Source: a virus
Direction: 5' to 3' (one strand)
Virus record (IMG/VR): IMGVR_UViG_3300043777_000056
Location: 7,798 to 71,797 of that record
DNA length: 64,000 nt
The position numbers and the translations under genes are program-made. The notes beneath the pieces are model-generated. The model ran no database searches. It saw nothing but the letters and a program-made list of their open reading frames with translations, and was not told the DNA's origin. This document shows, in pieces, positions 2,887-23,506 of this stretch (position 1 is its first letter; every line of letters begins with the position of its first letter).

Positions 2887-5109
2887 ATGCAGAACCAGCC
2901 GGAAGTCAGCCACGTCACAATCAAACCAGTTCCGGGAATGTTCACGGAACTCACAGCGCGCGGATCACTAGATCGGTGGGTATCTGGTCAGCTAGTTCGC
3001 TTCCATGACGGCCAGCCCCAGAAGATTGGCGGGTGGCAGAACACGCTGTTCACTGGCGGCCCGGTAATCGGCATCCCGCGCTCATCCCATATTTGGAACG
3101 ACCTTAACGGCCAGGAATGGATCGCATTCGGCACTGGCGCAAAGCTATACCTGATAAGCCTGAATGTCCTCTATGACATCACACCACTACGCAGGCAAGT
3201 AGGGCTAGCAGGACCATTCGCTGCCAACGGTACGAATCTGTTGACAGTCACTGATCCATCACATGGCGCTCAGAACGGCGACTGGGTGCGGTTCACTACC
3301 ACGGGCGTTGACAGTAATCCGATTCTTGGTCTGGTGTATTCGGCCAACAACAGTGTAGTCGCCAACACGCCGCTAACGTTGCGCGCTTCGCCGACAGTGT
3401 TCAGCAACACCATTGCCAGTGACTTCACGCTTGTATCGACCAGCAATCTGAGTGGTGTCAACTTCACCATCGTTGGCACTGATTGGCGCGGCAATCCTCA
3501 GGCTGTGACTATCGCAGGCCCCAACAACGGTTCTGTAATCACCAACAGCGAATGGGGCAGCATCATCAGCATTACGCCGAATGCTAGCAACTCTGGACAG
3601 GTGTCTGTAGGCGCTACGACGAATGGCCAGTTCATGGTGCAGAACTCGAATGCCCAGACGTATCAGATTGAGCTTCCTACTGGAGTAGCTGAGGGCACTG
3701 CCAATCTAGGCGGTACTGCGACAGCTCAGTACGACATCACCGCAGGACTTGACAACCAAGGTTTCTATTTCGGATGGGGAGCAGGCACATGGGGACTGGG
3801 AACATGGGGAACAGCCCGTACAGCGGCCAACGGATCTTTTTCGGATATGGTTCAGCCATTGCGGCTGTGGTCCTTAGACAACTGGGGGCAGGGATTGATA
3901 GCTGGAATCCGCAACGGCTCGACGTACTATTGGGATCGAAACACCGGCCCGAACGCGCGAGCGGTAGATATTTCGGTCAACCCTGAATTCCCGAACAATC
4001 CAGGGGCACCAGTGAACAGTCTATGGACGCTGGTGAGCAACACCAACCAGCAGCTGGTCACACTTGGAAGCTCTCATGACGGCATCAACGATGCGCTGTA
4101 CATCGCGATCAGCGATATCGATGACTTTACCGACTTCACTCCGAGCGACACCAATAGCGCCTACACAGGACGCTTGAGCGCTGGATCCAAGATCGTCTCC
4201 GCAGTCAAGACTCGCACCGGCATCCTCGTTGAGACTGATACCGCTGCATTCCTACTGCAGCCTAATGCGTCAACTGTATTCGCCAGCCAGCAAATCGCAG
4301 ATGAGACGACAATCTTGTCTCCGAATGCAGCGATAGACGTCAACGGCACTTGCTACATCATGGGACTTCGCAAGTGGTACGAGTATGACGGCGTGTACCG
4401 CGAGCTTCCTTCCGATGTCTGGTCACAGGTGTGGGGCAAGACGCCTGCCTATCCAGGCATCAACACTGCGATGTTCGACAAAGTATGGACGTGGCACAAC
4501 GACCAGTGGCCTGAAGTATGGTGGTTCTACGTGTCTGCCGGCGGCACCGAGATAGACAGCTACGTCATCCTGAACTACAAGGACAAACACTGGAGCTTCG
4601 GCCAGCTAAGCCGTACCGGCGGCACCAAGAGCAGCACCTTTACTGGATTCCCGATGGCATTCGACACCACGGGCAACATGTACTCACACGAGAATGGCGT
4701 AGATGGACAGACATTCCAGGGCTCGACCATTCCGATTACGAGCTTCGTCACCAGCTACGATATCCAGACCGTGCAGCGCTCCCCGTATGGCGCAGTGACG
4801 CCGGGTCGCGGTCTTGCGTACAACGAAGGTGCCGAGCAGATCCACATCAGCGCGGTCATTCCAGACATCATCTATCAGACCGGGCAGATGACACTGACCA
4901 TCAAGACTAAGCGCTATCCGCAAGGCGCATACGTCATCAAGGGTCCATACTCGATCAATCCAGCCCCGCAGGCGAGCGATCAGAATCAGTTCCTTAGCGT
5001 CCGCGCGCGCGGCAAGCTCGCAAACTTCACCTTTGGCAGCAGTGCGCTTGGCGCTGACTGGCGCATCGGCAACTTCACTTTTCTGACTCAGGACGACGGC
5101 GAGCGATAG
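2887..5109 (+). CDS. Tail nozzle / DNA stabilisation protein (tubular protein B- or P22 gp10-like)
   Basis: 740 aa, beta-rich. VRF...PQKIGGW, WSLDNWG, EVWWFY and RARGK motifs; C-terminal DGER; located after the adaptor. Confidence 0.7.
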   Translation: MQNQPEVSHVTIKPVPGMFTELTARGSLDRWVSGQLVRFHDGQPQKIGGWQNTLFTGGPVIGIPRSSHIWNDLNGQEWIAFGTGAKLYLISLNVLYDITPLRRQVGLAGPFAANGTNLLTVTDPSHGAQNGDWVRFTTTGVDSNPILGLVYSANNSVVANTPLTLRASPTVFSNTIASDFTLVSTSNLSGVNFTIVGTDWRGNPQAVTIAGPNNGSVITNSEWGSIISITPNASNSGQVSVGATTNGQFMVQNSNAQTYQIELPTGVAEGTANLGGTATAQYDITAGLDNQGFYFGWGAGTWGLGTWGTARTAANGSFSDMVQPLRLWSLDNWGQGLIAGIRNGSTYYWDRNTGPNARAVDISVNPEFPNNPGAPVNSLWTLVSNTNQQLVTLGSSHDGINDALYIAISDIDDFTDFTPSDTNSAYTGRLSAGSKIVSAVKTRTGILVETDTAAFLLQPNASTVFASQQIADETTILSPNAAIDVNGTCYIMGLRKWYEYDGVYRELPSDVWSQVWGKTPAYPGINTAMFDKVWTWHNDQWPEVWWFYVSAGGTEIDSYVILNYKDKHWSFGQLSRTGGTKSSTFTGFPMAFDTTGNMYSHENGVDGQTFQGSTIPITSFVTSYDIQTVQRSPYGAVTPGRGLAYNEGAEQIHISAVIPDIIYQTGQMTLTIKTKRYPQGAYVIKGPYSINPAPQASDQNQFLSVRARGKLANFTFGSSALGADWRIGNFTFLTQDDGER

Positions 5110-5130: not shown

Positions 5131-6615
5131 ATGGGCGCTACGCAATCACTCAATCTGCTGTCGATACAGTTCCAGGCAACGGACATGGCCAACAATGGCC
5201 TAGGTCTGATAGCCAAGCTCAACCGTATCAATCAGGACATAGACCAGATAGCCGCTGCCGTAAATGCCAACGCAGCGGTAGCCGCAGAGGCGGCCGATAA
5301 CGCGATTGACTTTGCGGACCCAACTGGCCTAGTTGGCATCGAGGCTGTTGACGGAACTGCTACGACTGCCATGCGTAGCGATGCGGCGCCACGCATCGAT
5401 CAGAACATGCAGCCCAACTGGACTAACACGCATCTGTGGACGCAGGGCTCGCTAGGCACCAATCTACTCAACATAGTCACGTACCAAAACACCACGCTGG
5501 CAACCTCGACCACTCAGCAGTTCTCGCCGCGCATAGCTTTCATGGGACAGGGATGGACTGGCGCCGCGAGTCAGCAGCGCGGATTCTCTATGGGCGCGCG
5601 CCCCGTAGGTACTAATGATGTCCTGTGGGTGATCAGCGTGCAGGTTGGGGTGGGCCTGTTTCAGGACGTGTTCGCCATCAATTCGCAAGGCTTTATTACG
5701 CTCTCGACATGGCAGGGCAACACGATTGCTGCTCAGTATGGCGGTACTGGCAACAATGCATATGTGATCGGCGACCTTCTGTACGCAAGCGCAACTGCGG
5801 CACTGACCAGACTCGCGGCCCCAACTGATAATCAGCAGCGCGTCCTGACGTCACAAAGTGTCGGCGGACAGCCGCAACCGCCGGCATGGACTCCAACCAA
5901 CTCGCTATTGATACCGGGCGCAAACATTGTGGGTCCGCCACCTACCCCGTTCTGGGTGGATGACGTCGAGGAGCCGATAGTAATTCCAGGGCCGCCGGGG
6001 CCATCTGGAGCGCAGGGCGCTCAGGGCCCTCCAGGACCGGCTGGCGAGGACGGAGCGGACGGCGATCCAGGGCCCCCAGGGGCAGCAGGCCCTGCCGGCG
6101 CGAACGGCGCCACGGGCCCCCAAGGGCCTCCTGGACAGCAGGGCGTCCAGGGTGAAGATGGTGATGAGGGTCCGCACGGCCCTCCAGGCGCAATAGGGCC
6201 TCAAGGTCCGCAGGGCATTCAGGGCGTCTCGGGGCCGGCGGGACCGGCTGGCGAGGATGGTACCGATGGCGACCAGGGCCCTCCAGGGTTACCCGGATCC
6301 ACTGGCGCGACAGGGGCCACTGGTGCCGCAGGACCACAAGGCCCTCCAGGGCCGGCGGGTGAGGATGGGGCAGACGGTGAGCCGGGCCCGCCGGGATCCA
6401 ATGGTGCTACTGGAGCGGCTGGAGTACCGGGAGCTGCAGGGCCTCCGGGAATACAAGGCGAGGACGGCGAGGATACGACAAGTGCATACCCTCCAGGACT
6501 GACCTATGGAGCGGGGCCGCCGCAGTTCGTACTGACATCTTCCGGTCCAGGAAGCACCCCGACATGGCAGTTCAGGCAGGATAGCTTTTTCACGGGTTAT
6601 GGCGGTGGAGCATAA
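5131..6615 (+). CDS. Collagen-like tail fibre protein
   Basis: N-terminal coiled coil, beta region, then 54 uninterrupted Gly-X-Y triplets. Confidence 0.8.
5989..6474 (+). repeat. Collagen (Gly-X-Y)54 coding repeat
   Basis: Counted from the translation. GED triplets recur every 11-12 triplets. Confidence 0.95.
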
Positions 6616-7038: not shown

Positions 7039-8648
7039 TGAGCGATGTAGGTGCTAACCCAAAACCTGCTGGCGTGGCAAGCATTGGGTACAAGCTTGGT
7101 GCCAGCCCTGTCAACAATGTTGAGCTGGTATCAAGTCCAGGAGTGGCAACCACATTCTTGCGTAGCGATGTCACGCTTGCACTAGACCAGAGTATCAGCC
7201 CGACGATGACTGGCAACTGGACGTTTACGCCCGGTAGCGGCGTAGCAATAGTTGTTAACGAGGTAGTAGGTTCGGACGGCGTACAAATATTTGCAGGCAG
7301 CGGTAGCGCGACAGATAGATCGCTAAACGTCGTCTTTAGCGGACACTACAATCTATTGAACGTTTTTAACGACGGCCACGGCCTACTAGGCTTCAATGGC
7401 AGTGCCAACACTATAACTTGGGCAGCTACCGGAGCTGTCGCAATCGCATCACCACCTACAGCTGTTACCGCGCTTACGATCAATGGCGCTTCTAGCGCTA
7501 CCATAGCGTTACTGAACGGCGCTAATGCTGCTGGCGGGATAGTGACCTTCCAGACTGCTGGGGTCTCATACGCCGATATAGGTACGGGAGTAGCGATTGC
7601 TGCTGGCGCTCCCGCATCAGTCTTTGCGATTTCTGCGCGTGCTGGCAACACCCTGTACCTTTGCGTAGACGGTGGTAATCCAGCGATTCAAATCGCACAG
7701 GCTGGAAACATAACGGTAGTAGCGCCTAGTAGCGGCACGGCAGTTGCTATCAGCGCCAACGATAATACTTCGGCGATGCTCTTTAACGAAGCGTCAGCTA
7801 CAGATGGATACTACATAGGCTTTGAGCAGGTAGGTTCACTTAAAGGCTTGATAGGCGTTGGTCCTATATGCATCACAGGTGCTACTGTAGCATCAACTAA
7901 TTTAGTAGCCGGTATAGCTTCAGCGTCAGATTTCCTTAACTTCAGCGCCAACGGCGGCAGTAGCATACAGATGCAGCTTGCTCCTGCTGGCCTTACTATC
8001 AATACCACCGCCAGCAATAACCAAGGTTTAAGTATCTTGGGTAATTTTGCTTCAGCTCCTGTGGGGTTTAAAGTTGTAAACTCGGCTACCGGCGCAAGTA
8101 CAGCTGCAACAGGCGTCTTCGACATGGGTGACGGGATAAACTTCCTGACCCTGCAATTCCAGAACGCCGGCAACACCGCTAACCCGGAGACAGGTGGCCC
8201 AACCGGGCTTTCGGGGTTGATAGGTACGAACTTCAACGGCCCGCTAAGCCTATTCACGAACGGCGTTGAGCAGATGAGAATTCTTGGGGGTGGTGGCGTT
8301 GTTCACAACTCCATAAGTGGTGTCACTAGTCTTCAGGTTAATGGAGGCCTAGCGCGTCCCGTGACTGCTACGAAAACAGCAAACTATACGATGCTGGTTT
8401 CTGATACATATCTGATCTTCAACGGCTCTGCTTCGATCACGTTGACACTACTATCTGCTTCTAGTTTTCCAGGTCGAGAAGTTCTTGTAAAAACCATAGC
8501 AGCAGAAACAGTTGTTAGCGCCTCATCGAATGTTCGTCCTATCAGTTCTGCAACAGCTGGAACTGCCATTCTTGCGGCAACGGCCGGCGCGTGGGCGCTG
8601 CTGGTCTCGGATGGAACTGATTGGGTTATAATGGCCAATGGAACCTAA
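7038..8648 (+). CDS. Tail fibre / receptor-binding protein
   Basis: Ala/Gly/Ser/Thr-rich. C-terminal TKTANYT...ITLTL...LVSDGTDWVI fibre-tip-type domain. Visibly more A/T-ending codons than its neighbours. Confidence 0.75.
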   Translation: MSDVGANPKPAGVASIGYKLGASPVNNVELVSSPGVATTFLRSDVTLALDQSISPTMTGNWTFTPGSGVAIVVNEVVGSDGVQIFAGSGSATDRSLNVVFSGHYNLLNVFNDGHGLLGFNGSANTITWAATGAVAIASPPTAVTALTINGASSATIALLNGANAAGGIVTFQTAGVSYADIGTGVAIAAGAPASVFAISARAGNTLYLCVDGGNPAIQIAQAGNITVVAPSSGTAVAISANDNTSAMLFNEASATDGYYIGFEQVGSLKGLIGVGPICITGATVASTNLVAGIASASDFLNFSANGGSSIQMQLAPAGLTINTTASNNQGLSILGNFASAPVGFKVVNSATGASTAATGVFDMGDGINFLTLQFQNAGNTANPETGGPTGLSGLIGTNFNGPLSLFTNGVEQMRILGGGGVVHNSISGVTSLQVNGGLARPVTATKTANYTMLVSDTYLIFNGSASITLTLLSASSFPGREVLVKTIAAETVVSASSNVRPISSATAGTAILAATAGAWALLVSDGTDWVIMANGT

Positions 8649-13361: not shown

Positions 13362-16300
13362 ATGGACGTCAACCTGCCTGACGGCACCACCGTTAAGGGT
13401 GTGCCTGATGACATGACTCGGGATCAGTTTGTGCAGAAGGCGAAAGCTAATGGCATGAACATCCCTGATGAATGGCTTGGCGCTTCACAGGTACACGCTC
13501 AACCCACGCAATCTCCGGCCGCTCCTCCGGCCCAAACGTCCAATGAACCAAGCATGGACGAAATCAACCGCCGACACCTTACCAGACAGGGCGATCAGTG
13601 GATAGATCCGACCGCGCCGCGCGATAGAACCAAGGATCCTAACAGCGAATTTGAGAACGTCGTAACCCGCGCCGGTAGCACTCTAGTTGGCATGGCGAAG
13701 GATCTGCCAAACGCTGCTGCCGCGTTGACCGATCCTGAGGCTTTGCTTCGCGGGTCCAATAAGCTCGCCGGCATAATGGGTATGGGAACAGATCCGTTTG
13801 GCGCAACTGCCCGCGCCATGAAGGCCAAGGGTATCGACTATGACCCGGTTCCGGAATGGGCCAAGCATGGCAAGGGTCTCAGCAATGCGATCATGAACAG
13901 CTCCCATGCCTATCAGGATTTCATGGGTGGAGTACAGGACAGGGTAGAGTCGGCGCTTACCCCTTCATTTCGCGATGCTGCCAATAAGCCAATGATGGAG
14001 GGCCTGAGAGACCCTGAATGGTATCTGAATGGTCTCGGAACGGCTGCAGCCTATGCGCTCCCGAGTATAGGTCCAATAGCAACGGCATCCAGACTTGGAT
14101 ATGCCACTCGCATGGCATCGCTCGCCGGGCGTACAGACATGGAGATGGCACAAAAGGTTGCCTCATCCATTGCCGCCGGCCAGAAAGCCGGGGCGGCTGT
14201 TGGTGGTGTGACCAATGCCGCAATCATGGGTGGTCAGACTGGGCAAGAAGTCCGTGACGCGCTGGGCAAGCTAGACGAAGCTACCCTGATGAACTACCCC
14301 GAGTACCGCAAGGCCCGCGAGCAAGGCAAAAGCGATGTCGAGGCTCGCCAGGAATTCATCTCCAATCGCGCTAATGAGGCCACCCTGCTGTCCGGACTCG
14401 CTGCCGAGCTTCCCACCCAGGCTCTAAACAAGTTCATCGCTCATGCCGCCGTAGGCCATGCCATAGCGCGTACGACTGCCGGCGCGGCCCTCAAGGGAAC
14501 CATCGAGGGCGGGGTAGCTGGTGCCCTGGGGATGACCGGAATGGGCACCGTGGAGCGCGCCGAAGAGGACAAGAACAAGGACTTCTATGGTGCGCTGAAG
14601 CAAGCGACCAAGGACGATTCCCTATCCGGAGCCCTATTCGGGGCTGTGATAGGTGGTGGTTTGGCCGGCGGAGCGCATGGTCGCATACCGACCACGCAGG
14701 CAGAAGATCTAGCCAGGGGGGCTGAAAAGGCCAAAACCGCATCCGATGTCCAGAAGGCAATGCAGTCTAAAGCCGACGCAGAGGCCGCTGAAGCGGCCGA
14801 GAAGCGCCAGAAGGCTGGGACAGCGTCTGACCAGGACAGCGGCGCAGCGGGCCGCGCAGAGGCCAAGGCAGAGCGTATAAGCGCCGAGCAGGCACAGGAG
14901 AACCACGAGACGCTAGTCCGTGCTCAGCAAGACTTCATAGCGGCCCATGAGCGAGTGAAAGCAATTGAGGCCCATGTTGCCGATCCTTCGGTGCCGGTCA
15001 ACTACAATGAGCTTGAACGTGCCCGTAACGAGCGGGCAAAGGCGTATGACGATTTCGCTGAGGCTGCCGATTCCGCTGGCATCCTGACAGCAAGGAAACA
15101 AAGCGGGCAGGTACAGAACAATGTCGGGCAAGCAAGCGAAAGATCTAACGAAGGAACCGTTCGACGGGCCGATCAGCGCGGAGACGGGAGCGGACGTGAG
15201 CGGAGTGTCGAACTCGAAGGGCCCAAGCTCGATGGGTCGAGCGCAGACGCGGCGTCATCCGGGAATGAGCGGGTCGGGCGGGAAGTCGAACCGCTGGCAG
15301 GGTCAGGTCGGGGCGCGACCGGAGTCGAACCCGGAGACGGACGGATATCTGGACGTCGGAATCAAGGATCGGAACATCCGCAGCCGCTAGAAGAGGTAGG
15401 CCCTCTTCCAGGCACTGAGGAACAGAAGCGCGGGCGCGTCCTCGACAATGTCGAGGAAACGAAGCTTGGCGGCCCCATGCCGCCACTTGAAGAAACCAAA
15501 AAGGCTCAAGAGACGCATGCCGGCGAGGCAAATGAGCCATCCGCCGCTTCTGAGCGTGACAAGGTCCAGAAGGCACTAGCCGAGCGTCAAGTCTCGAACA
15601 AGCAGTACGCCTCCAACTACGCCGATATCCCTGAAAGCAACCGGGCGCTAACCCCTGATCAGAAGCGGGTCGAAGACCGCATGAAGGCCATAGTGGCTGA
15701 CGTGCCGGCAGCGGAGCAGGCATACTCACAGGTCGCCGGCACCGAGGGCGGCCGGATCATCAATACCGATCTAGCGCGCAAACTCAGCCCTGATTACGAC
15801 AAGGACAATCAGTCTCGCGCGCTGCACTCAAATAGCGTTCAGGAACCATCTTCGTGGCTTGCTGACAAGCTGTATTTCCGTCGCCTAGCTGAACCACCCG
15901 GCGAGTCAAAGACGGTCCTAGCCACTGCTGGCGGTTCTGATTCGGGAAAGTCAATTTCACTGTCCAGTAAAGATGCCAAAAAGGCAGATATCGTTTACGA
16001 CGGTAACATGAACAATCTACCGAAGACCCGGCGCCGCATAAAGGCGGCCCTGGATAGCGGTCGAGATTTTCATATCCAATTCACCTTCCGCGATCCTATC
16101 GCGGCCTGGAAAGAAGGTGTGTTGCCGCGTGCAATGAAATTTGGGCGTACAGTGCCGGCGGAAGCGCATGCTGACACGCATAATGGCAGCTTCAAGACTG
16201 TGATGGCGCTTGCCAAGCAGTACGCAAATGATCCTCGCGTCAAGATCAGTGTAGTGGACGTTGACGACGCCAGCGTGAAGACGCTGCAGGATGTGGCCAA

Positions 16301-19300
16301 GAAACGGTACCACATAACACCGGATGAACTCCGAAAGATAGCGATTGAGGAATACAAGAATGGGCGAATCACAGATACGGTCCTCAGAGGGGTCGCCGGC
16401 CCAGGTGCTGAAAGACTGGCTCGTAGCGGAAAAGATAATGGACGAGTATCCGGAAAGCCAGTGGGAGAAGCAGGTAAAAGAGCAGGTTCCGCTGGCGAAG
16501 CAGGAAAGGGCAATGGAAGAGATTCGTCAGGAGAAGGCGGAGATCGAGCAAAGTCACAAGAAGAAGCTCGACTGGGAGAAGGTGTACCCGGACAGGTACA
16601 AGTAGAACCACTCAAGGGGATGCCGACATCAGTCGATGTCCCCGGCAAAGGCAAGATAGCCTTTGGACCAGAGACACGCGCACAGGCTGCTGCAGCTGAC
16701 TATGCTAAGCGCGCCGGCATCAAGTACGACCCTCCGCGCGACTACAAGAAAGTCAACGTCGATACCGCCAAGCAGATCGCTAAAGCATACGACGAGATGA
16801 AGAATGATCCGACTGATCCAAAGGTCAAGGCATCATACGATGCCCTTATCAAGGAGACACTGGATCAGTTCCAGTCAATCAAGGCCACCGGTCTCAAGAT
16901 TGAATTCATCGAACCTGGGCAGAAGGATCCATACGCTGCGAGCCCGCGTCTTGCGATTATGGATGCCCGCGATAACAATCATCTATGGGTGTATCCGACA
17001 GAGTCAGGCTTTGGCGGAAACGTAGTCAACATAGGTCTTAAAGTCGGAGAAAACGACAAAATCACTCGTGGCGAGGCTGAGGCTGCACTTCGTGCAAAAG
17101 GGGTGGACATAGTCTCCTCTAACGTTCACGAGTCTAACACTGAACCTACGCTGGTTGCGCGTCTCTCGCGACCACTCACTACCAGCGAGGCTCATGATGT
17201 CAGTACCAAGCTTAAACAGGAAAGTATCGCTCAACTTGTAGGCCAAAAGGGCGAGTTGCATGGCCCTAATGCCGAGCAATGGAGGCCATTCAATCCTGAC
17301 TACTTCCTGACCGAGAGCGGAGATGTGCTGTCCAAGGTTCAGCAGAATCCGATGCTTCGCGAGACGGATGAACTGATCGGGGGGCGCCGGCTGCTCGCAA
17401 ATGACGTTTTCCGGATCGTGCATGATTACTTCGGCCACATCAAGGAAGGAATTGGGTTCCGAGCCGATGGCGAAGAGAATGCGTGGCGACAACATGCTGC
17501 TATGTACTCCGATCTAGCGCGCGGCGCGATGACCACTGAAACGCGCGGACAGAACTCTTGGTTGAACTATGGTCCTCACGGCGAAAATAATCGCACCGCG
17601 AAGGCATCAGAGACCATCTATGCCGAACAGAAAGCCGGCCTCCTCCCTGACAGATTCACTGTAGATAGCCCAGAGCCTATCAAGACTGGGGAGAGCGTCG
17701 CTGAGGTATTGCCAGTGTTTCGCGTGGGGTCTGAAGGGACCGAGCGTGAACGCCAGCTCATCTGGGGTGGCAATCCAAAAGATATCCCCTACGCGAATGA
17801 AAAAGACCGTTCTGTCATTGCCGGTGGCGGTATCGATGCCAAAACCAGCGAGGCCATCAAGAGTCACATTCGACAAGAATTTGGGTTTGATGTCCAGATC
17901 GTTAACCATCCTGAAGATGTCCCTTACATTGATCGTTGGGCCGCAGAGAATCTACCAATATCTGCAGTATTCACCGACAACGTAGACGGTGGAACCGTCC
18001 ACTTAATCGCCGGCAACCTGGGCAGCTTCGAGCACGGAGTTACCGCAGCTACCCATGAACTAGTTGGTCACTACGGTACCCGCGCCGTTCTTGGCGGCCG
18101 AGGCAGTGACAACTATAACATCATGATGGATGCCATCACAAGGGCATTCCCTGGTCGCGTTCGCGAGATGGCCATCAAGAACGGCATCAGCATGTCTCAC
18201 CCTGACAAGTCTATACGAGAGATGCGCCGCCGAAGCGCCGCCGAAGAACTGGTTGCATACGCTGCCGAGAAGTCAATCGATGGCAAGCGCTTGCGTCCCG
18301 GCATGTTCCAGCAGATCGTCGATATGTTCCGGAGCTTTCTGCGCAACATCGGCGTTCTGAAGACCGCCAACGAATCAGATATCGCGAGTTTGATTGATCG
18401 CAGTGCCGATTACGTACGCCGGGGCGGTGCGGAAAGAATGCGGACCCGCGACCAGATCTCTCTTGATATAAGCGGCCAGCCGCGCGAATACGCCTTCCAG
18501 ACGAACGACAAGACCAGTTACCGCGTCAACCTTCCATCTGTAGAGCACTCATTCGATGAGACCGGGGAACACCGGCTATCGACTTCTGCCGGCGAGATGC
18601 TGGCGCAGGAGAGCGGGAAATACCTGAATGTGAAGCGCTCAGATGTCGAGAGCGCGGCACGCGGGCAAGGCCACGGCGTGGCGATGCTTGAGAAAGCGGC
18701 TAGCGTTGCCTTTGAGCGCGGACTTAAGCTTGGATCGGACATAAGCGTATCACCGTCTGCGGCTCGCCTTTACGATGCTCTTGAGAGACGTGGCTACGAG
18801 GTTACCCGCAATCCCGCAGACATCAGCGAGACTACCGGAAACTACGTGAGCCGCGATCATCGTGTACCGGTGTTCGAGGTAGCGCCACAGCAGAGCTACA
18901 AGGTAGGCAGGGAGAAGACGGCGCGCGATATCCTGGGCGAGGTAGCAAGTCATCTTACCAAGGAAGAAAAGGCCAAGCTCACGCGAGTATCGGCTGAAAA
19001 GGTACTTGATGTATTCAAAAACCTGCCAGATGCCAAGGAGTTTGCTTCCGCTGCGCTTGCTGGCAAAGCTAAGCGCGGCTGGTATCGAGAGAGCGCCAAA
19101 GCCATAGCCAACGTATTCGGTCCAGATGGACCGCGCTTTACCGCCTTACTATCAGCCATGAGTCCGCGGGTTAGCGTCGAGATGAACCTGCACAATGCCT
19201 TGCATACCTTCATCAACTGGGACAAGGCCGGACGTCCTCAGAAGCGCGGCGAGATCGTCAAGATAATGGGCGACTCAGTGTTGGGTGACCAGGGGAAGAA

Positions 19301-22300
19301 CAGCGTTCTAGGCGCTTGGATACCAAACGCAGTTCGCGCACTTACTCACGCCGAGCCAGAGAACCTTAACCTTAGCGGGCCAAAGGTCAATTCCTTCATG
19401 CGTAACCTACAGGGACACGTTCACGAAGTGACTCTGGATGCCTGGATGGCAAACTTCGCCAAGATAGATCAACGACTATTCGCCGGTAGTTTGAAAGCTA
19501 ACGGCGTGGATCCTGGCAAGCGCCCAGGGTACCTTGGTTACTCCGCCCGCGTGCGCGAAGCCGCCAAGATGGTATCCAGGATAACTGGTGAGAAGTGGAC
19601 GCCGGCCGAGATCCAGGAGACAATATGGTCATGGGCCAAGACAGCATACGAAACTGCAGACTCATACGGCGGCTTAGGAAGCGTGCCGGAGCTTGTGCGC
19701 AACAAGGAAATTACCGATGAACTCATCCGAAGCACTCCAGACTTTAAGACCCTCTTCCACTCCGAAGCCTACGAGCCAGTCCTCCGTGGGGCGGGATACG
19801 GTGACCGCCTTGACGAACTACGCGCAGCGAACGAAGCAGACGAGCAACGAGCTGCAAGCAAAGCGGAGCCGCCTGTTAGCCGCGCTCTCCAAAAGCACCT
19901 TGAAGCAGCCGCAGAGCGGCTAGAGTCTCTTCGTCAGGAAGTCAACGAGTCGCGCATCTCGACTCGACGCGCGCGCCAAACAGAGCGCCGACGCAATCCA
20001 AATCAGCAGCAAATGTTCAGCGTGTCAAAACCTGACTCGCCGGAACAGGCCGCGTTTCTTGCAAAGATCAATCCCGAGTCTCACGACACTAGACCACTAA
20101 AGGAAAAGATCGGAGAATTCCTCCATGGCGTCCAGCAAGGGGTATTCAACGAGTTTCATGGCATAGAAAGTTCGTTTAAACAATACGGCGGTGAAGGCCC
20201 CAACCTAGGATTCATGAAGGCCGAGCTGACCCGTAACGCCGGTCAACTACTGTCATCCGCCATCAAAGATGGTGTCCCTATTTGGCGCCAGGGTGAGGTT
20301 GGTCTAGATACCTCTGCCGGGGGCTACCAGGATATTCTAGCGCCACTTGGCAGTAAGGTCGAGGACTGGTACAACGCTCGCGTTGCGCGACGTGCCGCAC
20401 GTCTATACGAAGAAGGTCGAGAGCACAACTTCACTCCCGAAGAGATTGCGGCCGGCAATCGTTTGTGGGATCAGCATCCTGAGTTTGAAAAGGCCTTCCA
20501 GAAGCGCGCTGAATTCTCGCGTCGCATACTAGACTTCGCGGAGCAGGCCGGCATTATCGATGGCGAGGGTAGAAAAACCTGGGAGAACGCCGACCACGTT
20601 CCATTCTATCGATTGATGGGGGATACGGGAGACATCACTGGCGCGACCGCAGGCCGCAGTATAGGTCGCCAGAAAGAACAGATCAAGCGCCTCAAGGGCG
20701 GTGCCGCGCCAATTGCCGATCCTATGACCAGCGAACTCCAGAACTGGGGCTCGCTCATGAAAGCGTCATTGCACAACATGGCTGTGACCCGCGTTATAGA
20801 TGATATGCGGCATCTACAGATGGAAGATGGGCGCCCAGTGATAGAGGCTGGCCGTGCCTCTACCGACATCAAGATCTCGAAAGAAGAATACAAGCAGCGC
20901 CTACTTGATACCGGCGTTGATCCAAAGAGCCTGGACCACAATACTTTCGAGCATCTATACAGCCTGCAGCACGGACAACCCGAAGAACCTAACACCATAT
21001 GGCAGATGGTGAACGGAAAGAAGGTCTACTGGAAAGTGAATGACGAGATGCTTTTCCAGTCTCTGGCGAATCTGAACAATGGCGGCCAGTCTGAATTCAT
21101 GAAGTTCTGGTCCAAGTGGGTAGGCGCTCCCGCGCGCCTACTGCGCAAGACCATTGTCAACACTCCGGTATTCGCGGCCAAGATTGCAGTGCGCCATACC
21201 CAATACCTATGGGTAACCGGCCGGTATGGCTCGAAGTCTATCTCGCCTGAATTCGTGCCTCTACTGAATTCTGTTCAGGGCTTCTGGTCAATCATGCGCA
21301 ATAGCGAGGAAGCCAAACAGTGGAAGGCTGCTGGAGGCCTCTTCAGTGACGCTATGAGCTACGGAGAGCCGGTCAACGCGGCGCGTAGGCTCAAGATGCG
21401 TCTAGCCGCCAAGAGCGTCCCTGGGACCGTCCTAAGCAGCCTGACAGCGGTTGCTGACTTCTACCATCGCTTTCTGAACGCCGCTGAGGGCATGAACCGT
21501 ATCGCGATTGCCAACTCCTCGCTTAAAGCCGGAGCATCCAGAACGCAGGCGGCCCACGCGGCACGCAAGGTTCTGGACTACACCCAGAAGGGAAACCACT
21601 GGGCAATCAAGATGGCGATCACTTCCATTCCATTCACAACTGGACACTTAGCCGGTCTCGACGCCCTCAAGAAGTCCATGATGACGAATCCAACCGGGTT
21701 CCTATTCCGTGGCGGACTGCTCGCCGCTGGAGCCGTGGCTTACGCCGCGATGAACCAGAAGAACCCGGACTATTTAGCCCTGACTGATGACCAGAAGACG
21801 AACTACTTCCACTTCTTCAATGTCTTCAAGCAGGGCGACCATTGGCAGATCCCGAAGTCCTTCGAGGACGGCGCGATCTTCGTGACCATCCCAGAGGCCA
21901 TTACCAACTACGCCCTGTCGAGCGATAATGACCGCCTGCGTCAGGCCGCAAATCTGGCTGGTCACTCTCTCAAACAAGCGTTCGAGTACGATTACATGCC
22001 GACCGAGATCAGGCCGATCTACGATCTGGCAACCAACACCCAGCACTATAGCGGGGCGCCAGTACTGAGCCAACAGGATCTTGACGTGGCCCCTCAGCAG
22101 CAGGATGCGCCATACGTCAGTCCTACATTGCGCATGTTCGCGCAGAACATGCCTGATGCAGCTCCGGACTGGCTAAAGTCTCCCAAACAGGTTCAGTTTT
22201 TGGCGAGCAGTTATATCGGCACCATGGGTCAATACGTCACCGCTATAACAGATGCGATGATTCGTCAGGCCCAGGGTGTGACCGCGCCCGCGCGCCCGAA

Positions 22301-22784
22301 CGCTGTCGCCGGCCTACCGTCTGTCAACCAGATCTACAAGGTTGGGCCGTCATTGCGCACCAAGTACACGGACAGCATGTACACGGTGGCCAAAAACATT
22401 GCACAGATTTCCGCGACCGAGAAGAAGATGGAAGCCGGCGATGAGGGTAAGAAGGTCATGGACTACAATCGCGAACATGCGTTCGAGCTTGGCGTGAAGT
22501 CGAGCTATGACGCCGCTACCAAGCAAGTGGCCCAGATCCGTCACTACATCCTCCAGGTCCAGCAAGATAAGAACTTGAATCCACAGGATAAAGAGGATCG
22601 CATCGAGAAGGCGCAAGAGTCGATTAACAAGATCGCTGAACAGCTCTACAAGCTACGCCCAGGCGGTCCCCTCGACAAGACATCTCACAAATTGATAGGC
22701 GCTACCCTACCTCAGAAGGTAGGCGTGCTACAGTCTGCCGGACTCCCTGCGACGGCTTCTTTGATACGAGACATGGCGGCATAG
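13362..22784 (+). CDS. Giant polyvalent ejection protein (3140 aa): zeta-toxin-like P-loop kinase, LPD-type domain, zincin-like metallopeptidase, GNAT, HhH-glycosylase-like domain, LPD38-like C-terminus
   Basis: GGSDSGKS Walker A plus RAMKFGRTVP; FRIVHDYFGH; HELVGHYG; ARGQGHG...SPSAARLY; GWY...SAMSP...GPKVNSF...TLDAWM...IQETIW; WQIPKSFEDG. Confidence 0.85.
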   Translation: MDVNLPDGTTVKGVPDDMTRDQFVQKAKANGMNIPDEWLGASQVHAQPTQSPAAPPAQTSNEPSMDEINRRHLTRQGDQWIDPTAPRDRTKDPNSEFENVVTRAGSTLVGMAKDLPNAAAALTDPEALLRGSNKLAGIMGMGTDPFGATARAMKAKGIDYDPVPEWAKHGKGLSNAIMNSSHAYQDFMGGVQDRVESALTPSFRDAANKPMMEGLRDPEWYLNGLGTAAAYALPSIGPIATASRLGYATRMASLAGRTDMEMAQKVASSIAAGQKAGAAVGGVTNAAIMGGQTGQEVRDALGKLDEATLMNYPEYRKAREQGKSDVEARQEFISNRANEATLLSGLAAELPTQALNKFIAHAAVGHAIARTTAGAALKGTIEGGVAGALGMTGMGTVERAEEDKNKDFYGALKQATKDDSLSGALFGAVIGGGLAGGAHGRIPTTQAEDLARGAEKAKTASDVQKAMQSKADAEAAEAAEKRQKAGTASDQDSGAAGRAEAKAERISAEQAQENHETLVRAQQDFIAAHERVKAIEAHVADPSVPVNYNELERARNERAKAYDDFAEAADSAGILTARKQSGQVQNNVGQASERSNEGTVRRADQRGDGSGRERSVELEGPKLDGSSADAASSGNERVGREVEPLAGSGRGATGVEPGDGRISGRRNQGSEHPQPLEEVGPLPGTEEQKRGRVLDNVEETKLGGPMPPLEETKKAQETHAGEANEPSAASERDKVQKALAERQVSNKQYASNYADIPESNRALTPDQKRVEDRMKAIVADVPAAEQAYSQVAGTEGGRIINTDLARKLSPDYDKDNQSRALHSNSVQEPSSWLADKLYFRRLAEPPGESKTVLATAGGSDSGKSISLSSKDAKKADIVYDGNMNNLPKTRRRIKAALDSGRDFHIQFTFRDPIAAWKEGVLPRAMKFGRTVPAEAHADTHNGSFKTVMALAKQYANDPRVKISVVDVDDASVKTLQDVAKKRYHITPDELRKIAIEEYKNGRITDTVLRGVAGPGAERLARSGKDNGRVSGKPVGEAGKRAGSAGEAGKGNGRDSSGEGGDRAKSQEEARLGEGVPGQVQVEPLKGMPTSVDVPGKGKIAFGPETRAQAAAADYAKRAGIKYDPPRDYKKVNVDTAKQIAKAYDEMKNDPTDPKVKASYDALIKETLDQFQSIKATGLKIEFIEPGQKDPYAASPRLAIMDARDNNHLWVYPTESGFGGNVVNIGLKVGENDKITRGEAEAALRAKGVDIVSSNVHESNTEPTLVARLSRPLTTSEAHDVSTKLKQESIAQLVGQKGELHGPNAEQWRPFNPDYFLTESGDVLSKVQQNPMLRETDELIGGRRLLANDVFRIVHDYFGHIKEGIGFRADGEENAWRQHAAMYSDLARGAMTTETRGQNSWLNYGPHGENNRTAKASETIYAEQKAGLLPDRFTVDSPEPIKTGESVAEVLPVFRVGSEGTERERQLIWGGNPKDIPYANEKDRSVIAGGGIDAKTSEAIKSHIRQEFGFDVQIVNHPEDVPYIDRWAAENLPISAVFTDNVDGGTVHLIAGNLGSFEHGVTAATHELVGHYGTRAVLGGRGSDNYNIMMDAITRAFPGRVREMAIKNGISMSHPDKSIREMRRRSAAEELVAYAAEKSIDGKRLRPGMFQQIVDMFRSFLRNIGVLKTANESDIASLIDRSADYVRRGGAERMRTRDQISLDISGQPREYAFQTNDKTSYRVNLPSVEHSFDETGEHRLSTSAGEMLAQESGKYLNVKRSDVESAARGQGHGVAMLEKAASVAFERGLKLGSDISVSPSAARLYDALERRGYEVTRNPADISETTGNYVSRDHRVPVFEVAPQQSYKVGREKTARDILGEVASHLTKEEKAKLTRVSAEKVLDVFKNLPDAKEFASAALAGKAKRGWYRESAKAIANVFGPDGPRFTALLSAMSPRVSVEMNLHNALHTFINWDKAGRPQKRGEIVKIMGDSVLGDQGKNSVLGAWIPNAVRALTHAEPENLNLSGPKVNSFMRNLQGHVHEVTLDAWMANFAKIDQRLFAGSLKANGVDPGKRPGYLGYSARVREAAKMVSRITGEKWTPAEIQETIWSWAKTAYETADSYGGLGSVPELVRNKEITDELIRSTPDFKTLFHSEAYEPVLRGAGYGDRLDELRAANEADEQRAASKAEPPVSRALQKHLEAAAERLESLRQEVNESRISTRRARQTERRRNPNQQQMFSVSKPDSPEQAAFLAKINPESHDTRPLKEKIGEFLHGVQQGVFNEFHGIESSFKQYGGEGPNLGFMKAELTRNAGQLLSSAIKDGVPIWRQGEVGLDTSAGGYQDILAPLGSKVEDWYNARVARRAARLYEEGREHNFTPEEIAAGNRLWDQHPEFEKAFQKRAEFSRRILDFAEQAGIIDGEGRKTWENADHVPFYRLMGDTGDITGATAGRSIGRQKEQIKRLKGGAAPIADPMTSELQNWGSLMKASLHNMAVTRVIDDMRHLQMEDGRPVIEAGRASTDIKISKEEYKQRLLDTGVDPKSLDHNTFEHLYSLQHGQPEEPNTIWQMVNGKKVYWKVNDEMLFQSLANLNNGGQSEFMKFWSKWVGAPARLLRKTIVNTPVFAAKIAVRHTQYLWVTGRYGSKSISPEFVPLLNSVQGFWSIMRNSEEAKQWKAAGGLFSDAMSYGEPVNAARRLKMRLAAKSVPGTVLSSLTAVADFYHRFLNAAEGMNRIAIANSSLKAGASRTQAAHAARKVLDYTQKGNHWAIKMAITSIPFTTGHLAGLDALKKSMMTNPTGFLFRGGLLAAGAVAYAAMNQKNPDYLALTDDQKTNYFHFFNVFKQGDHWQIPKSFEDGAIFVTIPEAITNYALSSDNDRLRQAANLAGHSLKQAFEYDYMPTEIRPIYDLATNTQHYSGAPVLSQQDLDVAPQQQDAPYVSPTLRMFAQNMPDAAPDWLKSPKQVQFLASSYIGTMGQYVTAITDAMIRQAQGVTAPARPNAVAGLPSVNQIYKVGPSLRTKYTDSMYTVAKNIAQISATEKKMEAGDEGKKVMDYNREHAFELGVKSSYDAATKQVAQIRHYILQVQQDKNLNPQDKEDRIEKAQESINKIAEQLYKLRPGGPLDKTSHKLIGATLPQKVGVLQSAGLPATASLIRDMAA
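15121..15390 (+). CDS. Candidate nested ORF (+1 frame) upstream of the zeta-like domain
   Basis: ATG-to-TAG 89 aa with mostly G/C-ending codons. The host frame here is G/R-rich with CGA/GGA/AGA codons. Weak RBS. Confidence 0.4.
   Translation: MSGKQAKDLTKEPFDGPISAETGADVSGVSNSKGPSSMGRAQTRRHPGMSGSGGKSNRWQGQVGARPESNPETDGYLDVGIKDRNIRSR
16360..16605 (+). CDS. Nested ORF (+1 frame, 81 aa) directly after the zeta-like domain; candidate antitoxin
   Basis: GAGGA RBS before the ATG. Charged helical product with GAG/AAG/CAG/CTG codons, while the host frame becomes an A-ending GGA/GAA/AGA linker. Confidence 0.6.
   Translation: MGESQIRSSEGSPAQVLKDWLVAEKIMDEYPESQWEKQVKEQVPLAKQERAMEEIRQEKAEIEQSHKKKLDWEKVYPDRYK
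19717..19923 (+). CDS. Candidate nested ORF (+1 frame, 68 aa) after the HhH-like domain
   Basis: AAGGA RBS upstream of the ATG; helical basic C-terminal half. Confidence 0.35.
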   Translation: MNSSEALQTLRPSSTPKPTSQSSVGRDTVTALTNYAQRTKQTSNELQAKRSRLLAALSKSTLKQPQSG

Positions 22785-23056: not shown

Positions 23057-23506
23057 ATGGAACTCGGTACCGCCGGCACAAAACTAATTCAGTCCTTCGA
23101 GCAGTGCAGACTGACTGCTTACCAGGATCAGCGCGGTATCTGGACCGTGGGCTGGGGGCACACTGGGCACGAGGTAGTGCCGGGTCTAGTATGGACCCAG
23201 GAACAGGCTGACTCCACCTTCAAGCTGGACACCGTTATCGCAGTTGCCTGCGTGAATCATTCGGTAACCGCCCCGGTGAATCAAGCGGAATTCGACGCCA
23301 TGGTATCTCTGTGTTTCAACATCGGCATCGGAAATTTTCATAACTCAAGCTTTGTCAAAGCCATGAACTCTGGCGCCGGGCCCCAGGCCGAGCACGATAC
23401 CTTCGTGGAATGGGATCACACAAACTCACGAGTCAATCCAGGTCTTGACATGCGCCGGCAGCAGGAGTGGCGACTGTTCAGCACCGGAAAATCGGTGTTC
23501 GGATGA
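23057..23506 (+). CDS. Endolysin, GH24 lysozyme
   Basis: FEQCRLTAYQDQRGIWTVGWGHT (E-x8-D-x5-T triad), FDAMVSLCFNIG, GLDMRRQQE. Confidence 0.95.
   Translation: MELGTAGTKLIQSFEQCRLTAYQDQRGIWTVGWGHTGHEVVPGLVWTQEQADSTFKLDTVIAVACVNHSVTAPVNQAEFDAMVSLCFNIGIGNFHNSSFVKAMNSGAGPQAEHDTFVEWDHTNSRVNPGLDMRRQQEWRLFSTGKSVFG

Follow-up and report, generated by a model that had tools for sequence, protein, structure and literature searches.

Several genes are known that lie out of frame within a larger one. In phage lambda, Rz1 is contained wholly inside Rz in the +1 frame; it is started separately, and each of the two genes gives a functional product. Bacillus subtilis comS lies inside srfA-B, and mok overlaps hok. 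In the classical epsilon/zeta operon the antitoxin gene precedes the toxin gene, and zeta toxin kinases phosphorylate UDP-sugar cell-wall precursors and are toxic. Polyvalent proteins of phages and conjugative elements were described by Iyer et al. (2017, PMC5512222); in the available part of that paper LPD38 is listed as phage-specific and zeta-like kinases are noted. The present analysis deals with a gene for such a protein in a 64,000-nucleotide stretch of viral DNA (positions 7,798 to 71,797 of the IMG/VR virus record IMGVR_UViG_3300043777_000056), which is called the window and whose numbering is used below. It was found rather probable that some linkers between the domains of this giant protein are read in two frames, with small genes in the +1 frame, of which open reading frame (ORF) B is most likely an antidote to the neighbouring zeta-like kinase.

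The giant multi-domain protein resembles the polyvalent proteins of Iyer et al. (2017) in carrying LPD38 together with a zeta-toxin-like kinase. Hidden genes in linkers are, unlike here, not described in the available part of PMC5512222, which contains no use of "overlapping" or "frameshift", and a search of the literature, as far as its texts were accessible, found no published account of genes concealed in polyvalent-protein linkers. As in Rz/Rz1, a small gene lies in the +1 frame of a larger phage gene. Rz1 is a lipoprotein acting with Rz in lysis, whereas the host gene here is a 9.4-kb multi-domain virion gene with several unrelated small genes in its spacers, over which the host frame is unconstrained. 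The small out-of-frame gene in a very large multi-domain gene recalls comS, and the frame overlapping a toxin gene recalls mok/hok. However, comS is a competence regulator unrelated to its host enzyme and mok couples hok translation; neither is a domain-linked partner recurring across mosaic relatives. Like epsilon/zeta and ng_epsilon1/ng_zeta1, the locus combines a P-loop kinase bearing a conserved Asp and Lys with a small protein of 60–90 amino acids, which is predicted, at low confidence, to be helical. It differs in that the sequence of ORF B matches neither epsilon nor PezA nor ng_epsilon1, and in that ORF B lies after the kinase, out of frame inside the same ORF, instead of being a separate upstream gene. 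Embedded +1 genes and epsilon/zeta pairs as such are known.

A first-pass annotation had reported a 3140-amino-acid ORF at 13362–22784 and, within it, three ATG-started +1 ORFs of 89, 81 and 68 amino acids (here ORFs A, B and C), and all four are present. The features needed first are the following:

13362–22784, + strand: giant polyvalent virion-protein gene, main frame (f0), 3140 amino acids (ORF list, Pfam, homologues)
15675–16400, + strand: zeta-toxin-like P-loop kinase domain, f0 residues ~772–1013 (Pfam; ng_zeta1, PDB 6EPH)
16347–16351, + strand: GAGGA Shine-Dalgarno-like site 8 nucleotides 5' of the ORF B start; GAGGA(A/G) at the same place in 4/4 DNA copies
16360–16605, + strand: ORF B, overprinted +1 gene, 81 amino acids with three predicted helices (conservation, selection, codon usage)

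Searches of phage, viral, genome and metagenome contigs for close DNA relatives of ORF B turned up only L001, an IMG/VR locus, and the metagenome loci L002 and L003. The +1 frame is open in all four DNA copies, that is, in the window and these three loci. The start column is common to the four (ATG in the window and L003, GTG in L001 and L002), as is the stop column, which is preceded by YP(D/E)RYK. A +1 stop is located five codons upstream of the start in the window and L003. The start requires AAT (33–41% of Asn codons) or AGT (7–9% of Ser codons) in f0. The +1 sequence is protein-like (LKDWLxAEKIMDxFPESxW...), while f0 encodes a Gly/Glu/Arg-rich spacer there, with zero indels among five proteins. 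When the region was compared by tblastx, the +1/+1 pairing was best, with 115 vs 92 bits and 112 vs 104 bits.

L001 and L002 differ at 28 sites over ORF B, distributed over +1 codon positions 1, 2 and 3 as 7, 6 and 15. These differences cause nine amino-acid changes in +1 compared to 19.6 expected (0/5000 random placements were as low) and 19 in f0 compared to 18.9 expected. Among 109 windows of the L001/L002 gene, only linkers A and B displayed this pattern of a selected +1 frame and a drifting f0. The third-position divergence of f0 drops from 0.38 to 0.08–0.15 in the linkers, in line with the suppressed synonymous variation that the first-pass annotation had proposed to look for. Comparing the window with L003, L001 and L002 over ORF B gave z scores of −2.4, −2.5 and −1.8 for +1 and of about 0 for f0, against an f0 z of −10 over the zeta domain as control. 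Sequencing run X3 contained one 151-base contig (depth 2) spanning 16391–16541 with five differences, which are three silent ones and a K to R change in +1 and four amino-acid changes in f0; this is too thin to count. Run X2 yielded identical fragments only, and run X1 is probably the source sample.

Two minus-strand ORFs of 194 amino acids each, 15145–15729 (−) and 16070–16654 (−), overlap linkers A and B. Such long minus-strand ORFs mean that stops are scarce in several frames, and together with the suppressed synonymous f0 sites this would suit conservation at the nucleotide level, through RNA structure, packaging or a regulatory signal, with +1 frames open by accident. This explanation is very improbable given the three-base substitution period in phase with +1 (7, 6, 15 in L001/L002), the depletion of amino-acid changes in +1 alone and not in +2 or f0, and the conserved start and stop columns. 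The minus-strand ORF over B does not look selected either, because its third codon position falls on the most conserved base. A promoter scan gave two sites compared to 2.1 expected, none of which precedes ORF A, B or C. Judged from these comparisons, ORF B is a real dual-coding gene under selection in the +1 frame, with conserved start, stop and Shine-Dalgarno site, and it is almost certainly translated as a protein.

ORF length was rejected as evidence, since shuffled genes yield longer +1 ORFs. When the giant gene was shuffled 2000 times by codon and 2000 times synonymously, the longest +1 ORF had a mean length of 106–108 amino acids, with P = 0.71–0.74 for a longest ORF of ≥89 amino acids and P = 0.11 for five ORFs of ≥68. 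Besides A, B and C, three further ATG-started +1 ORFs of 62–76 amino acids, which the first-pass annotation had not listed, begin at 18130, 16804 and 17797.

Codon usage was scored with tables trained on 18 other genes of the window, as +1 "coding against shadow" per codon. Shadow +1 windows scored −0.51 on average (sd 0.18, maximum 0.116, n = 6774) and real in-frame genes 0.384. The peak of the entire giant gene, 0.348 per codon, is situated exactly at 16360–16602 (ORF B), followed by 0.272 at 15127–15369 (ORF A), while ORF C reached −0.04 and the unlisted ORFs −0.18 to −0.49. With the f0 protein fixed and the frame required to be open, the codon test resulted in z = 7.2 for B, where 0/1500 nulls attained the observed score, 4.5 for A and 2.9 for C; for the unlisted ORFs it was 3.1, −0.2 and −0.6. 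A modest z in this test is not decisive, because the control ORF at 17797 also reaches 3.1. +1 was preferred as coding frame in four of 103 giant-gene windows, three over ORF A and one over ORF B, and the window over ORF C was a near tie. As had been claimed, two of the ORFs have ribosome-binding sites, namely GAGGA-N8-ATG for B and AAGGA-N8-ATG for C; no core Shine-Dalgarno sequence precedes the start of ORF A. The background for the core sequence is 8/101 alternative-frame ATGs in the giant gene and 13/30 real starts. A plot of GC content at third codon positions (GC3) was uninformative for the window, as GC is about equal at codon positions 1 and 3. In L001/L002, f0 GC3 fell below 0.55 at linkers A and B and in two marginal L002 windows, one of them in region C.

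The unremarkable lengths, and the lack of signal in other +1 ORFs of like length, would fit an origin of all three ORFs by chance in purine-rich, T-poor linkers. This is scarcely credible, since the comparative results for B and C (open frame, selection, starts, motif) contradict it; ORF A by itself may be such a chance product.

ORF C follows a different domain of the giant protein and belongs to a widespread family:

19065–19628, + strand: DUF7178 domain, f0 residues 1902–2089 (Pfam E 5.4e-8)
19704–19708, + strand: AAGGA Shine-Dalgarno-like site 8 nucleotides 5' of the ORF C start (Shine-Dalgarno scan)
19717–19923, + strand: ORF C, overprinted +1 gene, 68 amino acids, member of a widespread +1 family (conservation, selection)
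19852–19887, + strand: +1 helix motif L-[AQ]-A-K-[QR]-x-R-L-[LIM]-x-x-L, ORF C residues 46–57 (family alignment)

The family was collected by scanning IMG/VR with the end region of DUF7178. The best 80 of 222 confirmed loci were taken together with the window, and after ten rows with identical DNA had been dropped, 71 distinct sequences were left, three of which lack the motif column (leaving 68). Nearly everywhere in region C, the conservation of f0 is about double that of +1. Only in columns 190–219 does +1 clearly beat f0 (0.44–0.47 vs 0.24–0.30 in columns 200–219); a trivial +1 excess was also present in the poorly aligned columns 250–259 (0.12 vs 0.10). The K and the L of the motif are each found in 67/71 sequences, and K49 and L53 of ORF C are invariant in 31/31. 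Over the motif, identity at f0 third positions reaches 0.97, and it is the f0 first positions that vary.

An ATG within the open +1 stretch was present in 68/68 family members compared to 226/426 control windows, and 47/68 of these ATGs have a core Shine-Dalgarno sequence compared to 26/237 control ATGs. The median length of the open stretch is 75 codons (controls: median 11, 95th percentile 48, maximum 89). In 39/68 sequences the stop is located 20 codons past the motif K, and in 40/68 CTA or TTA supplies the +1 stop, compared to a background use of 17%. Selection was tested on 21–23 greedily chosen independent pairs of 4–30% divergence. For the conserved part of ORF C, 21 pairs gave z(+1) −6.9 and z(f0) −4.1; the same pairs gave +8.6 and −37 in the domain core and +0.6 and −12.4 past the stop. 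In the window, the ATG of ORF C is preceded by AAGGA-N8, and the ORF contains the motif and ends at the common stop column. AlphaFold2, run with 31 sequences, predicted for it a disordered head and a single helix spanning residues 24–62, with a predicted local distance difference test score (pLDDT) of 66.6. The best match among PDB profiles was unrelated (E 0.053), and the motif was not found in the polyvalent gene of Planktothrix phage Pag-Yong1. By its conserved motif, starts and substitution pattern, ORF C is likewise a real dual-coding gene under +1 selection, and it is very probably translated.

The +1 segments could also be reached by programmed +1 frameshifting, which is stimulated by an internal Shine-Dalgarno sequence in prfB. 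They would then be the C-terminal tails of shortened isoforms, which would stop behind the zeta domain in the case of B and behind DUF7178 in that of C. Every selected +1 segment indeed terminates at a conserved stop just behind a domain, clear selection in ORF C covers its last ~30 codons, and +1 stops occur in many loci close to the ATG column upstream. Against it speak the conserved ATG/GTG of ORF B with GAGGA at the 8-nucleotide spacing of initiation in 4/4 copies, together with the +1 stop five codons upstream in the window and L003, and, within the ORF C family, the ATG in 68/68 and the core Shine-Dalgarno sequence in 47/68 vs a background of 11%. Inspection by eye, rather than a systematic search for shift sites, revealed no f0 stop or rare-codon pause. 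Frameshifting is hence improbable, and from their starts and upstream motifs B and C quite probably are independently started.

The remaining ORF adjoins the kinase on its 5' side:

15121–15390, + strand: ORF A, +1 ORF of 89 amino acids in the linker before the zeta-like domain (codon usage)

Its codon-usage log-odds of 0.23–0.27 per codon exceed the shadow maximum of 0.116. The closest protein relative of the giant protein, P0002, has large deletions across linker A, and no sequencing-run contig covered ORF A. L001 and L002 possess an own 64-aa +1 ORF in linker A (L001 6441–6635, L002 6254–6448) with GGAG ~9 nucleotides upstream. This ORF shows eight +1 amino-acid changes compared to 14.3 expected (P 0.0014), and 15 compared to 13.8 in f0; no similarity between ORF A and the linker-A ORF of L001 was found by BLASTP. 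ORF A may be a third, fast-evolving gene. Codon usage is the one line of support for its translation, which is possible but somewhat doubtful. The view of the first-pass annotation that the nested frames are not noise therefore holds for B and C by codon usage and conservation, and for A by codon usage alone. Similarly, +1 ORFs with ribosome sites recur beside the same domains for B (4/4 copies) and C (ATG 68/68, Shine-Dalgarno 47/68), while no homologue was found for A.

The kinase next to ORF B appears to be active. Zeta_toxin (PF06414) matched f0 residues 873–967 with E 4.4e-6 and 26.7 bits (cutoff 22.3), and the closest solved relative is ng_zeta1 (PDB 6EPH, E 2.3e-8). The Asp of the NTD motif and the Lys of GKS are invariant in 5/5 sequences and align with D56 and K115, which are the catalytic residues of ng_zeta1 according to the part of PMC5923241 at hand. 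The same source describes zeta relatives as lytic toxins that drain cell-wall precursors and require an antitoxin, and streptococcal epsilon as a three-helix bundle.

A word-index search found 460 homologues of the giant protein (1727–5495 amino acids) with the mosaic domain content typical of polyvalent proteins. The zeta P-loop motif was present in 14/120 long homologues. The f0 footprint of ORF B occurred in 5/14 of these and in 0/106 without the P-loop, and in all five carriers it is located 214–215 residues past the P-loop. The homology of the relatives stops at the ORF B stop, and the domain that follows varies; it is an LPD-type stretch in the window, GGDEF (PF00990) in P0002 and P0003 and others in P0004 and P0005. 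Because GGDEF is inserted directly after the ORF B footprint in P0002/P0003, the module boundary corresponds to the ORF B stop. By this distribution, ORF B and the zeta-like kinase domain are one evolutionary module.

Other zeta subfamilies show a comparable arrangement. In a second one, a +1 ORF of 103–111 amino acids (L007 4707–5018, L008 4683–5018) with a stop column common to both loci sits at the same spot after the kinase and is unrelated to ORF B. Its z(+1) was between −3.0 and −4.8, and z(f0) went up to 0.1. A third subfamily, represented by L009 (30% identity), has a 58-aa helical-looking +1 ORF at 4686–4862 directly after the kinase with GAGG upstream. Elsewhere in L007, at 1883–2080, mild +1 constraint was seen against L008 (z −1.9), but strong selection on f0 persisted there (z −4.7).

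Since ORF B is linked to an apparently active zeta-type kinase, an inhibitor is the best guess for its product. Inhibition of the zeta-like domain by ORF B is, taken by itself, a nearly balanced proposition, leaning slightly to the negative. A complex prediction for the two proteins (score 0.00, mark 0.32) gave "no answer" and counts neither way. The earlier suggestion of an epsilon-type antitoxin found no backing at sequence level, as no epsilon/PezA family or chain matched and ORF B lies after the kinase. ORFs A and B do flank the zeta-like domain as claimed, whereas C follows DUF7178, which is not evidently toxic. Immunity next to a toxic domain thus fails as a general explanation, because ORF C is conserved in loci for which DUF7178 was the sole criterion of choice.

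The +1 proteins might be real and yet no antidotes, but chaperones, assembly or packaging partners, processing cofactors or regulators, with linkers simply being the places where a second frame is tolerated. The conservation of ORF C in 68/71 loci picked by DUF7178 alone, with no toxic domain adjoining, agrees with this, as do the lack of mutual similarity among B, C, the L001/L002 linker-A ORF and the L007/L008 ORF, the lack of antitoxin-family matches for these +1 proteins and the f0 that is unconstrained exactly where +1 is selected. It does not account for a +1 ORF beginning at the end of the kinase domain in each of the three zeta subfamilies for which DNA is available, nor for the absence of the ORF B footprint from all 106 homologues without a zeta domain. 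Moreover, the kinase has kept its catalytic residues, and its relatives are lytic toxins needing an antitoxin (available part of PMC5923241). Overall, this alternative was judged rather unlikely.

Several results weigh against reading the linkers as dual-coding with an antidote in ORF B. Nine of the 14 zeta-bearing homologues do not have the ORF B footprint, and the start of ORF B falls at the 3' end of the kinase part, from where the ORF extends downstream. The sample for ORF B consists of four DNA copies and eight distinct protein variants. Its AlphaFold2 model with helices at residues 13–29, 32–42 and 45–67 is of low confidence (mean pLDDT 63.9). ORF B gave nothing in Pfam at E ≤ 10 except EOS1 at 0.11, no match in PHROGs and a best E of 0.59 for an unrelated PDB profile, with no antitoxin family or solved chain. 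The unlisted 62-aa +1 ORF at 17797–17985 (+) attained z 3.1, close to ORF C. No homologue of ORF A was detected in any frame, neither by tblastx in all frames nor by a word search of 5.8 billion proteins. For ORF C, the stop column is a stop in 42/71 sequences, clear selection is found on the last ~30 codons with z(+1) −1.2 for the N-terminal part, and the ORF adjoins no known toxic domain, following DUF7178. Stops in the +1 frames of close homologues had been named beforehand as evidence to the contrary; ORF B is uninterrupted in 4/4 copies, while the ORF C frame stops six codons early in L001/L002, where it is without +1 constraint.

Database searches revealed that ORF B had been recorded before. 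A profile search of 1.84 billion proteins gave three matches, two of which are the same protein called alone; the third, P0123, is weak and TPR-like (E 1.2e-4). By word search, gene callers were found to have called the ORF B protein (80–81 or 56 amino acids) on five contigs of 666–2446 bases. In these entries (P0121, P0122 and P0124–P0126), the +1 ORF B was chosen over the giant-frame fragment on short contigs. ORF B is therefore already present, nameless, in protein databases, and the statement that gene callers miss the +1 ORFs applies inside an intact gene, with ORF B being called on the five short contigs. Foldseek returned 0 matches for the ORF B model. The ESM Atlas gave nothing usable on the small +1 proteins (0.90 "hypothetical", BamD/YfiO lead 0.88).

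The giant protein itself combines several unrelated domains, including an LPD domain, in one polypeptide within a phage virion module, as is characteristic of polyvalent proteins. Its other features are:

18054–18071, + strand: HELVGH (HExxH) motif in f0 (motif; without matching Pfam family)
18636–18797, + strand: weak GNAT-like stretch in f0 (Acetyltransf_7 and Acetyltransf_1, E 0.005, below cutoff)
21765–22280, + strand: LPD38 domain, f0 residues 2802–2973 (Pfam E 1e-25)

Of the domains proposed in the first-pass annotation, the zeta-like and LPD38 domains were recovered by Pfam above cutoff and the HhH-like region corresponds to DUF7178. The LPD-type and zincin stretches gave no family match in the Pfam search, although the HELVGH motif of the latter is present, and the GNAT match stayed below cutoff. 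Tail-fibre, virion and endolysin genes surround the giant gene in the window. A collagen-like tail-fibre gene with many PHROG tail-fibre matches lies upstream (5131–6615), and an endolysin gene (23057–23506) just 3' of it. No cultured relative of the stretch was found in the phage collection searched, and no RNA sequencing run containing it was found.

The explanation that is favoured here, overprinted genes in the linkers with an antidote in ORF B, would work as follows. In the linkers, f0 would need only to remain open and would yield a low-complexity spacer, while the small +1 proteins would be made from their own ribosome sites and starts, most likely on the same late mRNA. The ORF B product would bind and silence the zeta-like kinase while the giant protein is made, so that the phage could stockpile the kinase without early lysis. 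The small proteins would be missing from the virion. Historically, neighbouring genes may have fused across a small gene, whose alternative frame became the "linker"; ORF B would in effect be an antidote gene swallowed by gene fusion. Translation, binding, inhibition and the absence of the small proteins from the virion are steps that we infer. It is conceivable, though on balance doubtful, that giant polyvalent genes carry a systematic second gene layer, in which each mobile domain module has a small +1 partner over the following spacer.

For annotation, the finding means that the one giant gene given by standard procedures conceals at least two further protein genes that are invisible to them, and that the ORF C family, which recurs in 68/71 distinct viral metagenome loci, is hidden from annotation as well. 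The "disordered linkers" of polyvalent proteins may need re-reading as imprints of hidden genes, which alters how linker conservation is interpreted. If such a systematic second gene layer exists, low-complexity linkers would be a by-product of gene fusion across a small gene and not designed spacers, and the three unrelated +1 genes behind three zeta subfamilies would mean that the arrangement arose or was replaced repeatedly. As an antidote, ORF B would be a kinase inhibitor without known relatives and would represent a new small-protein family. The phage must make many copies of a lytic kinase late in infection, yet its host has to survive long enough; how this succeeds would be explained by an antidote built into the gene, which the producing cell makes and which does not accompany the injected protein.

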